Below are positions 7,512 through 8,978 of a stretch of DNA of 64,000 nucleotides, piece after piece. The position numbers and the translations under genes were made by a program. Numbering within the stretch: the first letter of the stretch is position 1; each line of letters begins with the position of its first letter. The DNA is from Escherichia phage 212. The notes under the pieces were generated by a model. That model had not been told where the DNA came from and searched no databases. It saw only the letters and a list, made by a program, of their open reading frames with translations. The stretch lies in sequence record PQ765507; one strand, given 5' to 3'.

Positions 7512-8492
7512 ATGTTTAATATTAAAGCTTTATCCAAATTTGACCAAAACCAGGTAGTTTCTCTTTATAAAACTGGTAATTATACCCAACAGGAACTAGC
7601 AGATAATTTCGGTGTATCGGTTGACACCATTCGCCGTGTTTTGAAAAATGATAAAGAATCAAAATTAGCTAAAACCATTTCTGCATCATTGAAAGCCGAT
7701 GTCGGGGTGGCGATTAATGCTCCAGTGGCAGTAACGGTTGAAGTTCCGGTTGTTGAAGATACAATCGGCGGTAGCCGCCCGGAAATCGTATGGAATGCAT
7801 CAAGCAAATTCGTTTCCATCACCGAAGGTCGTACAGTCTGGAACGCAACAAAAGACCATAAACACTTTAATGATATTATTCAGGCATTGATTGAATCTCG
7901 TTTTGATGATGCTATTGAGTATATCTCAATCAAAGCTGCAGTACAAAAATATGTGAAAGGTGATGTACGTATCGAAGGTGGTAGTCTGTTCTATCAGGGA
8001 ATTGAACTGCGCTCTGGTCTGGTTACTCGTATCATCGATTCGATGCAAAATGGTGAAGACTTTGAATTCTATCTACCATTCCTTGAGAATCTCCTTGAGA
8101 ACCCGAGTGAAAAAGCTGTACAGCGTTTGTTTGACTTCCTGGTTGCGAACGATATCGAAATCACAGAAGACGGTCATTTCATCGCATGGAAAATGGTTCG
8201 TGCAACTTACAAAGATTGTCACTCAAACACATTCGACAACAGCCCTGGCCAATATGTTAAAATGCCACGCTCTCGTGTGAATGACAATGACGAACAGACC
8301 TGTTCAACCGGGTTACATGTTTGCTCTAAAGGCTATATCGGAAGCGGTTTTGGTCATGGTGATGGGCGCATCGTATCATGTAAAGTTCACCCGCGCGATG
8401 TTGTAAGTATCCCGGTGGATTATTCCGATAGTAAGATGAGGGTCTGTGGTTACCTGGTTCTTGACGATGTGACCGAACGTTTCAATGATTAA
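7512..8492 (+). CDS. rIIB: rIIB protein
   Basis: 326 aa directly downstream of rIIA; HTH-like N-terminus (QQELADNFGVSVDTIRRVLKN); synteny with T4. Confidence 0.85.
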   Translation: MFNIKALSKFDQNQVVSLYKTGNYTQQELADNFGVSVDTIRRVLKNDKESKLAKTISASLKADVGVAINAPVAVTVEVPVVEDTIGGSRPEIVWNASSKFVSITEGRTVWNATKDHKHFNDIIQALIESRFDDAIEYISIKAAVQKYVKGDVRIEGGSLFYQGIELRSGLVTRIIDSMQNGEDFEFYLPFLENLLENPSEKAVQRLFDFLVANDIEITEDGHFIAWKMVRATYKDCHSNTFDNSPGQYVKMPRSRVNDNDEQTCSTGLHVCSKGYIGSGFGHGDGRIVSCKVHPRDVVSIPVDYSDSKMRVCGYLVLDDVTERFND

Positions 8493-8978
8493 ACAAACAA
8501 TTGCTAAAGACGGTTCAGCTCGTGGTATTGTCCACGGGCTAGGCCACACGCCTGAATACATTGTATGGATTGGCATGAAAGCCCGGTGTTGTAATCCAAC
8601 ACATATTGGATATTCTCGATATGGCGGTCGTGTGGTATCACTGTTTGCGATGAATGGTTGCATGATTTTGAAAGATTTTATACAGATATGGGGCCACGAC
8701 CCACTGACAAACATCAACTCGACCGAACAGATAATAATAAAGGTTATTCTCCAGATAACTGCCGATGGGTTAGTCCGGGTGAGAATGCTTTAAATAAGCG
8801 CACGTATAATAACAACAAGTCTGGATTTAAAGGAGTCTCGTTTGATAAACGAGCTTTGAATAAACCATGGCGAGCCACTATTATGCGAAATAAAAAACAA
8901 ATTCAAGTCGGAGCTTTTGCAACTCCAGAAGAAGCAAATGAAGCTCGATTAAAATATATGGAAGAACATAATGTCTAA
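8485..8978 (+). pseudogene. frameshifted HNH-family homing endonuclease with AP2-type DNA-binding domain
   Basis: Two overlapping frames (track ORFs 8485..8793 and 8658..8978) jointly encode W-GMK-RC-NP...YGGR / GITVCDEW...DMGPRP...DNNKGYSPDNCRWV plus a C-terminal AP2-like domain; the frame breaks near 8630-8640. Confidence 0.65.

Follow-up and report, generated by a model that had tools for sequence, protein, structure and literature searches.

Probable recent inactivation of an HNH-like/AP2 homing-endonuclease gene by a two-base duplication downstream of rIIB in Escherichia phage 212

Between rIIB and denB.1, the 64,000-nucleotide (nt) stretch of Escherichia phage 212 DNA analyzed here (record PQ765507; hereafter the window) carries two overlapping open reading frames (ORFs) that are the halves of a single gene. 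This gene is orthologous to that for gp292 of phage VR7 and encodes a putative free-standing homing endonuclease with an N-terminal HNH-like domain and a C-terminal AP2 DNA-binding domain. It is probably inactive in this phage, through a genuine and recent tandem duplication of 2 bp after codon 49. An earlier reading of the letters alone (the sequence-only reading) had proposed a frameshifted homing-endonuclease gene directly after rIIB, and comparison with relatives bears out both the position of the shift and the insertion. The phage belongs to the genus Gaprivervirus, the VR7/SP18-like T4-type coliphages. By megablast it is 92-97% identical to known genomes, with no database record identical to the window, and the closest genome across 25-50 kb is that of SP18, which is without the endonuclease gene.

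The two ORFs that had been predicted, 8485..8793 (plus strand, frame 1) and 8658..8978 (plus strand, frame 3), are both present, frame 3 being open from 8595. In a three-frame translation, frame 1 reads MIKQ…YSRYGGR and frame 3 goes on with GITVCDEW…EEHNV and a stop codon; removal of positions 8632-8633 yields a single ORF of 163 codons. When the protein repaired in this way was compared with the window by tblastn, residues 1-53 matched frame +1 (8485-8643, E 1e-30) and residues 39-163 matched frame +3 (8601-8975, E 9e-78). The second match is collinear with the first, which identifies the halves as one protein, in keeping with the earlier proposal, and rules out two unrelated genes. The indel of 1-2 nt expected near 8630-8640 is revealed by the alignment with four intact orthologs to be an insertion of two bases at 8632-8633. 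Here the window has GGTCGTGTGGTATC where the relatives have GGTCGGGGTATC or GGGCGGGGTATC, that is, GGT CGT GT GGT ATC as against GGT CGG GGT ATC, and the gene measures 494 nt rather than the 492 nt of its intact orthologs. The insertion splits a GGRGI motif between Arg49 and Gly50; in the family alignments G47, G48 and R49 are invariant, and G50 and I51 nearly so. Alleles differ at the third position of codon 49 (G, C or T), and the simplest history is best read as a synonymous CGG>CGT change that would have been followed by tandem duplication of GT (or TG). Past 8631 the ORF beginning at 8485 is out of frame, and it ends at TAA 8791-8793. An antisense ORF (8376..8717) was also considered and is unsupported, covering sequence that is missing from most relatives.

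Intact copies of the gene are readily found. The whole of a query spanning 8000-9500 is covered by five records, VR7 (twice), DCP80, MN01 and TH54, at approximately 94-96% nucleotide identity, and in each annotated carrier record a 492-nt gene lies between rIIB and denB.1. RefSeq names the VR7 copy gp292, “HNH endonuclease” (YP_004063973.1). This gene and its orthologs from MN01, DCP80 and TH54 share the locus (rIIB, gene, denB.1) and the 163-codon length, and the repaired protein is 97-98% identical to their products; these copies are intact, whereas that of the window has the +2 insertion and a private N84. The same gene order is also found on five metagenomic contigs; in these and in four phage records, nine orthologous loci in all, the gene is a single frame of 163 amino acids (aa). 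A protein cluster at 90% identity has 20 members; among the 15 listed, 14 are 163 aa long and one is 133 aa. The latter (P0131, from a 29-kb Logan contig) begins at Met31 and may come from a further allele with a damaged 5′ end. The repaired protein differs from one intact protein (P0121, DAH50965.1) by N84D alone.

The shift is recent. Codons 50-163, taken in the shifted frame and compared with intact relatives, give a ratio of non-synonymous to synonymous change (pN/pS) of 0.05-0.12 (9-10 synonymous against 2-4 non-synonymous). This low ratio, together with the one-residue difference from P0121, implies that the gene was under purifying selection until very recently, and the pattern fits a fresh mutation or an error and not long-standing decay.

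If the two extra bases fit either, which of these is it? That they are an error of sequencing or consensus, the gene being intact in the real phage, is unlikely, and the observations in favor of this explanation can be stated briefly. The allele is private: the frameshifted form was not found in IMG/VR, JGI metagenomes or GTDB genomes (exact and flexible patterns) or in the phage collection, and the exact 102-aa and 106-aa ORF products gave no records. Moreover, the indel aside, the sequence resembles a gene under purifying selection, as would an error in an intact gene. However, an independent de novo assembly in Logan carries the same 3,724 nt. Contig SRR31744088_61, the one contig on which the exact 96-aa product from ATG 8688 is recorded, is 100% identical to window positions 6688-10411 with no gaps, includes CGTGTGGT and is unbroken at the site. 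The error would also have to have struck a single gene, for when 77 SP18 proteins were tested against the window by tblastn, 73 aligned in a single frame and none of these comparable genes is frameshifted (gp248, segG, gp271 and gp279 have no counterpart in the window); the sole broken gene among those that can be compared is the dispensable, selfish one. Finally, what was inserted is a dinucleotide, outside any homopolymer, and insertions of this kind are atypical of platform indel errors.

A still smaller probability attaches to the proposal that the broken gene is kept for a residual function, either through a C-terminal fragment that contains AP2 and would act as a DNA-binding protein or through an internal promoter-like motif driving denB.1 and denB. 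A pattern resembling T4 middle promoters (MotA box TGCTTTA) has eight matches in the window, all on the plus strand, against 1.45 expected. One of them, at 8786-8810, falls within the gene, 160 nt before denB.1; it is kept in the VR7, DCP80 and metagenomic (Gaprivervirus) alleles, and as a putative promoter it could feed the downstream genes. Furthermore, AP2 and other DNA-binding domains derived from homing endonucleases have elsewhere been co-opted as repressors (PMC10448857; bioRxiv 10.64898/2026.02.23.707548). Against this, the shifted frame has no good start, its TTG 8658 and ATG 8688 both being without a Shine-Dalgarno sequence, and a transcript from the putative promoter would begin past most of the ORF. 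In addition, the motif is not conserved in the homolog from Morganella phage MP1, and the recency of the shift suffices to explain the intact-looking remainder.

Programmed -1/+2 ribosomal frameshifting or transcriptional slippage that yields the full-length enzyme has next to no probability and is effectively excluded: the frames do overlap across 8595-8793, so that a fusion is possible in principle, but this overlap contains no in-frame X XXY YYZ heptamer, no homopolymer run of ≥5 occurs before 8892, the 120 nt of RNA downstream are no more stably folded than shuffled sequence (z = -0.13), every ortholog is single-frame such that the shift is unconserved, and the site interrupts the most conserved motif, in which slippage would insert or change a residue. 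Slippery site, stimulatory structure and conservation are thus all missing. The sequence-only reading had left the choice between a decaying gene, a sequencing error and a required frameshift; of these, decay is clearly favored over error, and the frameshift can be set aside. A second copy of the endonuclease gene that could supply the function is likewise ruled out, since tblastn with the repaired protein finds none in the 64-kb window.

What would a genuine lesion mean for the products of the locus? The start codon of the gene (ATG 8485) overlaps the rIIB stop codon (TAA 8490-8492) by 8 nt, an overlap already noticed in the sequence, and translation from this ATG would give 49 native and 53 out-of-frame residues before the stop at 8793. 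The break would part the conserved H17 and C35 from the nuclease and AP2 modules and from C54 and C92; together these four conserved residues may, as a conjecture, make up a structural metal site. The broken allele would therefore make no active enzyme, and translational coupling into denB.1 would be lost. In the window, as in intact alleles, the denB.1 start (ATG 8971) overlaps the stop codon of the endonuclease gene (ATGTCTAA, 8971-8978), and the ancestral denB.1 ATG is at 8983. Because the cassette that carries the endonuclease gene removed the ancestral denB.1 Shine-Dalgarno sequence, the premature stop at 8793 may reduce denB.1 translation.

The nature of the encoded protein is best established at its C-terminus, where the predicted AP2-like domain is confirmed by profile and by fold. 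On the repaired protein the Pfam AP2 model (PF00847) scores 21.9 bits, under its cut-off of 33.3 bits; it is matched by 39 of 70 homologs, with a best value of 1.1e-10. A profile of this 70-sequence family matches the AP2 domains of WRI1 (3.5e-9) and TEM1 (4.9e-6) in the PDB. A structure model was made from an intact homolog (P0001, 95% identical); it contains the three-stranded sheet packed on a helix that characterizes the AP2 fold, and a Foldseek search against the PDB returned AP2 domains only. The assignment of the C-terminal domain to the AP2 DNA-binding fold is solid. No NCBIfam match was obtained, and a phmmer search of the PDB with the protein was also empty. The only curated HNH-type matches come from PHROGs families named “HNH endonuclease”, phrog_374 (3e-59) and several related families. 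The family is very large, with 6,748 clusters at E ≤ 1e-5, and tblastn finds it in 844 phage records from many host genera. Many of its longer members possess Cys-rich N-terminal extensions, and weak Pfam CapR matches in 5 of the 70 sequences link the family to the CapR/AP2 combination lately described in DNA-binding anti-CRISPR proteins.

Several points weigh against the reading of the gene as a homing endonuclease, once active and now genuinely broken. If SRR31744088 is the source run of the window, the Logan assembly rules out an artefact of the assembler or of polishing but not a systematic read error. The Pfam HNH models are matched by none of the 70 family members at E up to 0.1, and the canonical catalytic His is absent from all 70 aligned members, which have no invariant His at all. 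We infer both the nuclease activity of the family and its homing, and so too the target site of the endonuclease.

In view of this, the “typical” HNH core of the sequence-only reading does not hold: beyond the family-wide absence of Pfam HNH matches, the repaired protein itself gives no Pfam HNH-type match at E up to 10, an invariant Arg occupies the canonical His position, and the nearest solved nuclease is PacI. Alignments of 42 and 70 sequences share the invariant residues R34, C35, G47, G48, R49, W57, F64, R80, Y87, N91, W94 and N103. The position of the catalytic His corresponds to R80, and the adjacent H76 is not conserved; N91 and N103, the structural and metal-ligand Asn residues, are invariant, and D79, the Asp ahead of the general-base position, is nearly so (D/E). 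Secondary structure and conservation were used to assign a beta-beta-alpha unit in the model, with predicted strands at residues 77-80 and 92-95 and a predicted helix at 97-104. In this arrangement D79-R80 would occupy the classical place of the HNH Asp/His-His, Y87 would lie in the loop between the strands and N103 on the helix. PacI (PDB 3m7k/3ldy), of His-Me finger group 20, is likewise without that His (PMC5714182; PMC4081073), and the invariant Y87 could substitute for it by analogy with PacI (PMC5714182). The predicted order of the family, a putative beta-beta-alpha metal finger followed by DNA-binding modules, would also be that of I-HmuI and HNH_3 proteins, and its LDRxDN…N(C)RW…N pattern resembles the HNH_3 motif. 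However, the I-HmuI profile match (E = 3) is not significant, HNH_3 is matched by 0 of 70 members, and Arg replaces the catalytic His. The most apt description of the nuclease domain is thus that of a divergent HNH-superfamily member without the catalytic His, which possibly uses PacI-like chemistry, catalysis itself being presumed.

The distribution of the gene is patchy. Of 37 matching phage records, 5 have the cassette that bears it, and the gene is missing from the other approximately 30 Gaprivervirus records (66% or 50% query coverage). Comparison of the junctions at 10 loci with the cassette and 8 loci without it showed exact boundaries and identical junctions throughout, 502/504 nt in the carriers standing in place of 41 nt in the non-carriers, which upholds the proposed insertion downstream of rIIB. 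Non-carriers read …ACTGAAC, then AATTCTAAATTAATCGGGGCTTCGGCCCCTAATGAGGCTTT, then ATGTTAGG…, and their 41-nt spacer contains a GC-rich hairpin and the denB.1 Shine-Dalgarno sequence. The stem-loop, GGGGC-TTCG-GCCCC, has no T-run and lies at 958-990 of the SP18 locus (L005), with equivalents in L006, L007 and L094-L098. In carriers, the final rIIB codons (…ERFND and stop) come from the cassette. Nothing but the replaced spacer consistently distinguishes carriers from non-carriers, for no alignment column in the flanks of ±400 nt separates the two groups; co-conversion of the flanks, considered as evidence of homing, was rejected in the absence of any linked polymorphism there. In its downstream flank the window most resembles two non-carriers, P896 and SP18 (98%), and in its upstream flank a carrier, TH54 (97.8%). 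The presence of the cassette thus does not follow flank or whole-genome affinities; it is uncoupled from the genomic background, as would be expected of a free-standing mobile gene. A 71%-identical homolog sits in the same slot between rIIB and denB in MP1 (L013, 5-2305), a member of a different genus of T4-like phages, which suggests old residence at this junction or its repeated targeting.

How might the intact gene have spread? The AP2 domain would bind a specific site in relatives that lack the gene, most likely the 41-nt spacer with its GC hairpin, and the predicted N-terminal beta-beta-alpha metal finger would then cut near the bound site; during co-infection, recombinational repair would copy the cassette into the cut genome. 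The hypothesis that the recognition site overlaps the replaced spacer follows from the need for a carrier to be self-immune and from the lack of consistent differences in the flanks. A preference of AP2 domains for G/C-rich sites has been reported (PMC10448857, citing Magnani et al., 2004), and at the replaced spacer the hairpin alone is G/C-rich. A more specific version, which we regard as tentative and rather doubtful, holds that the HNH-AP2 family is no classical HNH but a PacI-type beta-beta-alpha nuclease without the catalytic His, in which the chemistry falls to Tyr87 (with Arg80, Asp79 and Asn103), and that its AP2 domain recognizes the replaced GC-rich hairpin spacer (GGGGCTTCGGCCCC) in Gapriverviruses. 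Loss of the spacer on insertion would explain both the self-immunity of carriers and why their flanks have no protective polymorphism. If true, a widespread His-less, PacI-like family that targets the spacer it replaces would be of moderate interest to nuclease specialists.

Much of this is already known in outline: the gene is annotated in VR7, its class is described in T4-related phages and a similar member split by a frameshift is described in Vibrio phage ICP1. HNH-AP2 homing-endonuclease genes of T4-related phages have been tabulated (Petrov et al., 2010, PMC2993671, Table 5), and their origin is discussed by Magnani et al. (2004), as cited in PMC2993671. These genes are likewise free-standing, with an N-terminal nuclease-like and a C-terminal AP2 domain and a patchy distribution; those of RB49, RB43 and RB16 are likened to the present gene by their class description, the table predating the Gaprivervirus genomes. 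The IPA-HNH genes of ICP1 similarly join a divergent HNH domain, missed by Pfam HNH_3, to a C-terminal AP2 domain; in one copy a frameshift has left two separate ORFs, gp115 and gp116, which are read as an inactivated gene (Barth et al., 2023, PMC10448857). In that case the nuclease-like domain is in gp115 and AP2 in gp116, whereas the break in the window falls inside the N-terminal domain; the likeness of ICP1 gp59 and gp209 to the window family is again one of description. Frameshifts, deletions and variable stops are typical of homing-endonuclease genes (PMC10448857).

The finding is thus an ordinary, fresh pseudogene of a known class of mobile gene. The cyclical model of invasion, decay and loss for homing-endonuclease genes predicts exactly such a broken allele, and the present one captures the decay stage of this life cycle as a clean natural case, its remainder being essentially identical to working alleles. 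For annotation, the two ORFs should be given as one pseudogene (disrupted HNH-AP2 homing endonuclease) and not as two hypothetical proteins; the finding is of little consequence otherwise. Homing crosses that use VR7-type donors could also draw on the window phage as a naturally occurring null control. Coordinates of the locus are collected in Table 1.

Table 1. Features of the rII-denB.1 region of the window (position 1 is its first nucleotide).
Feature	Position	Strand	Basis or remarks
rIIA	5276-7510	+	
rIIB, 326 aa, upstream host gene	7512..8492	+	ORF list; tblastn with SP18 rIIB; junction comparison
Cassette, apparently mobile, 504 nt (502 nt in intact relatives)	8479..8982	+	Junctions after …ACYGAAC and before ATGTTAGG
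HNH-like/AP2 homing-endonuclease gene, probable pseudogene, ortholog of VR7 gp292	8485..8978	+	Four phage orthologs; repaired translation 163 aa
Codons 1-49, native frame (first part of ORF 8485..8793)	8485..8631	+	
Two inserted bases, read as GT tandem duplication	8632..8633	+	Alignment with orthologs; invariant columns
Codons 50-163 and stop codon, shifted frame	8634..8978	+	ORF 8658..8978 is the portion from the first possible start codon
Predicted beta-beta-alpha metal finger, residues 77-104	8715..8798	+	Strand QLDR, loop with Y87, strand CRWV, helix with N103
T4 middle-promoter-like motif (TGCTTTA, 12 nt, TATAAT), directed at denB.1	8786..8810	+	Pattern count
AP2 DNA-binding domain, residues 112-160	8820..8966	+	
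denB.1 homolog, 69 aa, PF21825	8971..9180	+	ORF list; junction comparison

Other differences from related phages were observed elsewhere in the window. A second presence/absence polymorphism of a homing-endonuclease gene is found in the gp59–gp32 interval (29450-29538), where SP18 has segG and the window only a gap of approximately 87 nt. An intact gene for a 241-aa Seg-like homing endonuclease with a NUMOD3 motif, 98.8% identical to SP18 gp235, lies at 41621-42343 on the opposite (minus) strand and overlaps the end of pseT. In the early region itself, the ORF that follows denB.1 (9184-9453, plus strand) encodes a DUF7418 protein, and a YopX-domain ORF takes its place in a second group of Gapriverviruses (EAWsc9, Yersinia phage P8), a further cassette-like polymorphism of the same region. 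Two adjoining small paralogous ORFs at 10427-10944 (plus strand) form a tandem duplication related to SP18 gp281 (68% and 37% identity). Finally, at 17648-21457 (minus strand), the distal tail-fibre gene gp37 shares only 54% identity with its SP18 counterpart and gp38 shares 86%, as against 97-100% for the neighboring genes, a divergence that points to a swap of the receptor-binding module.

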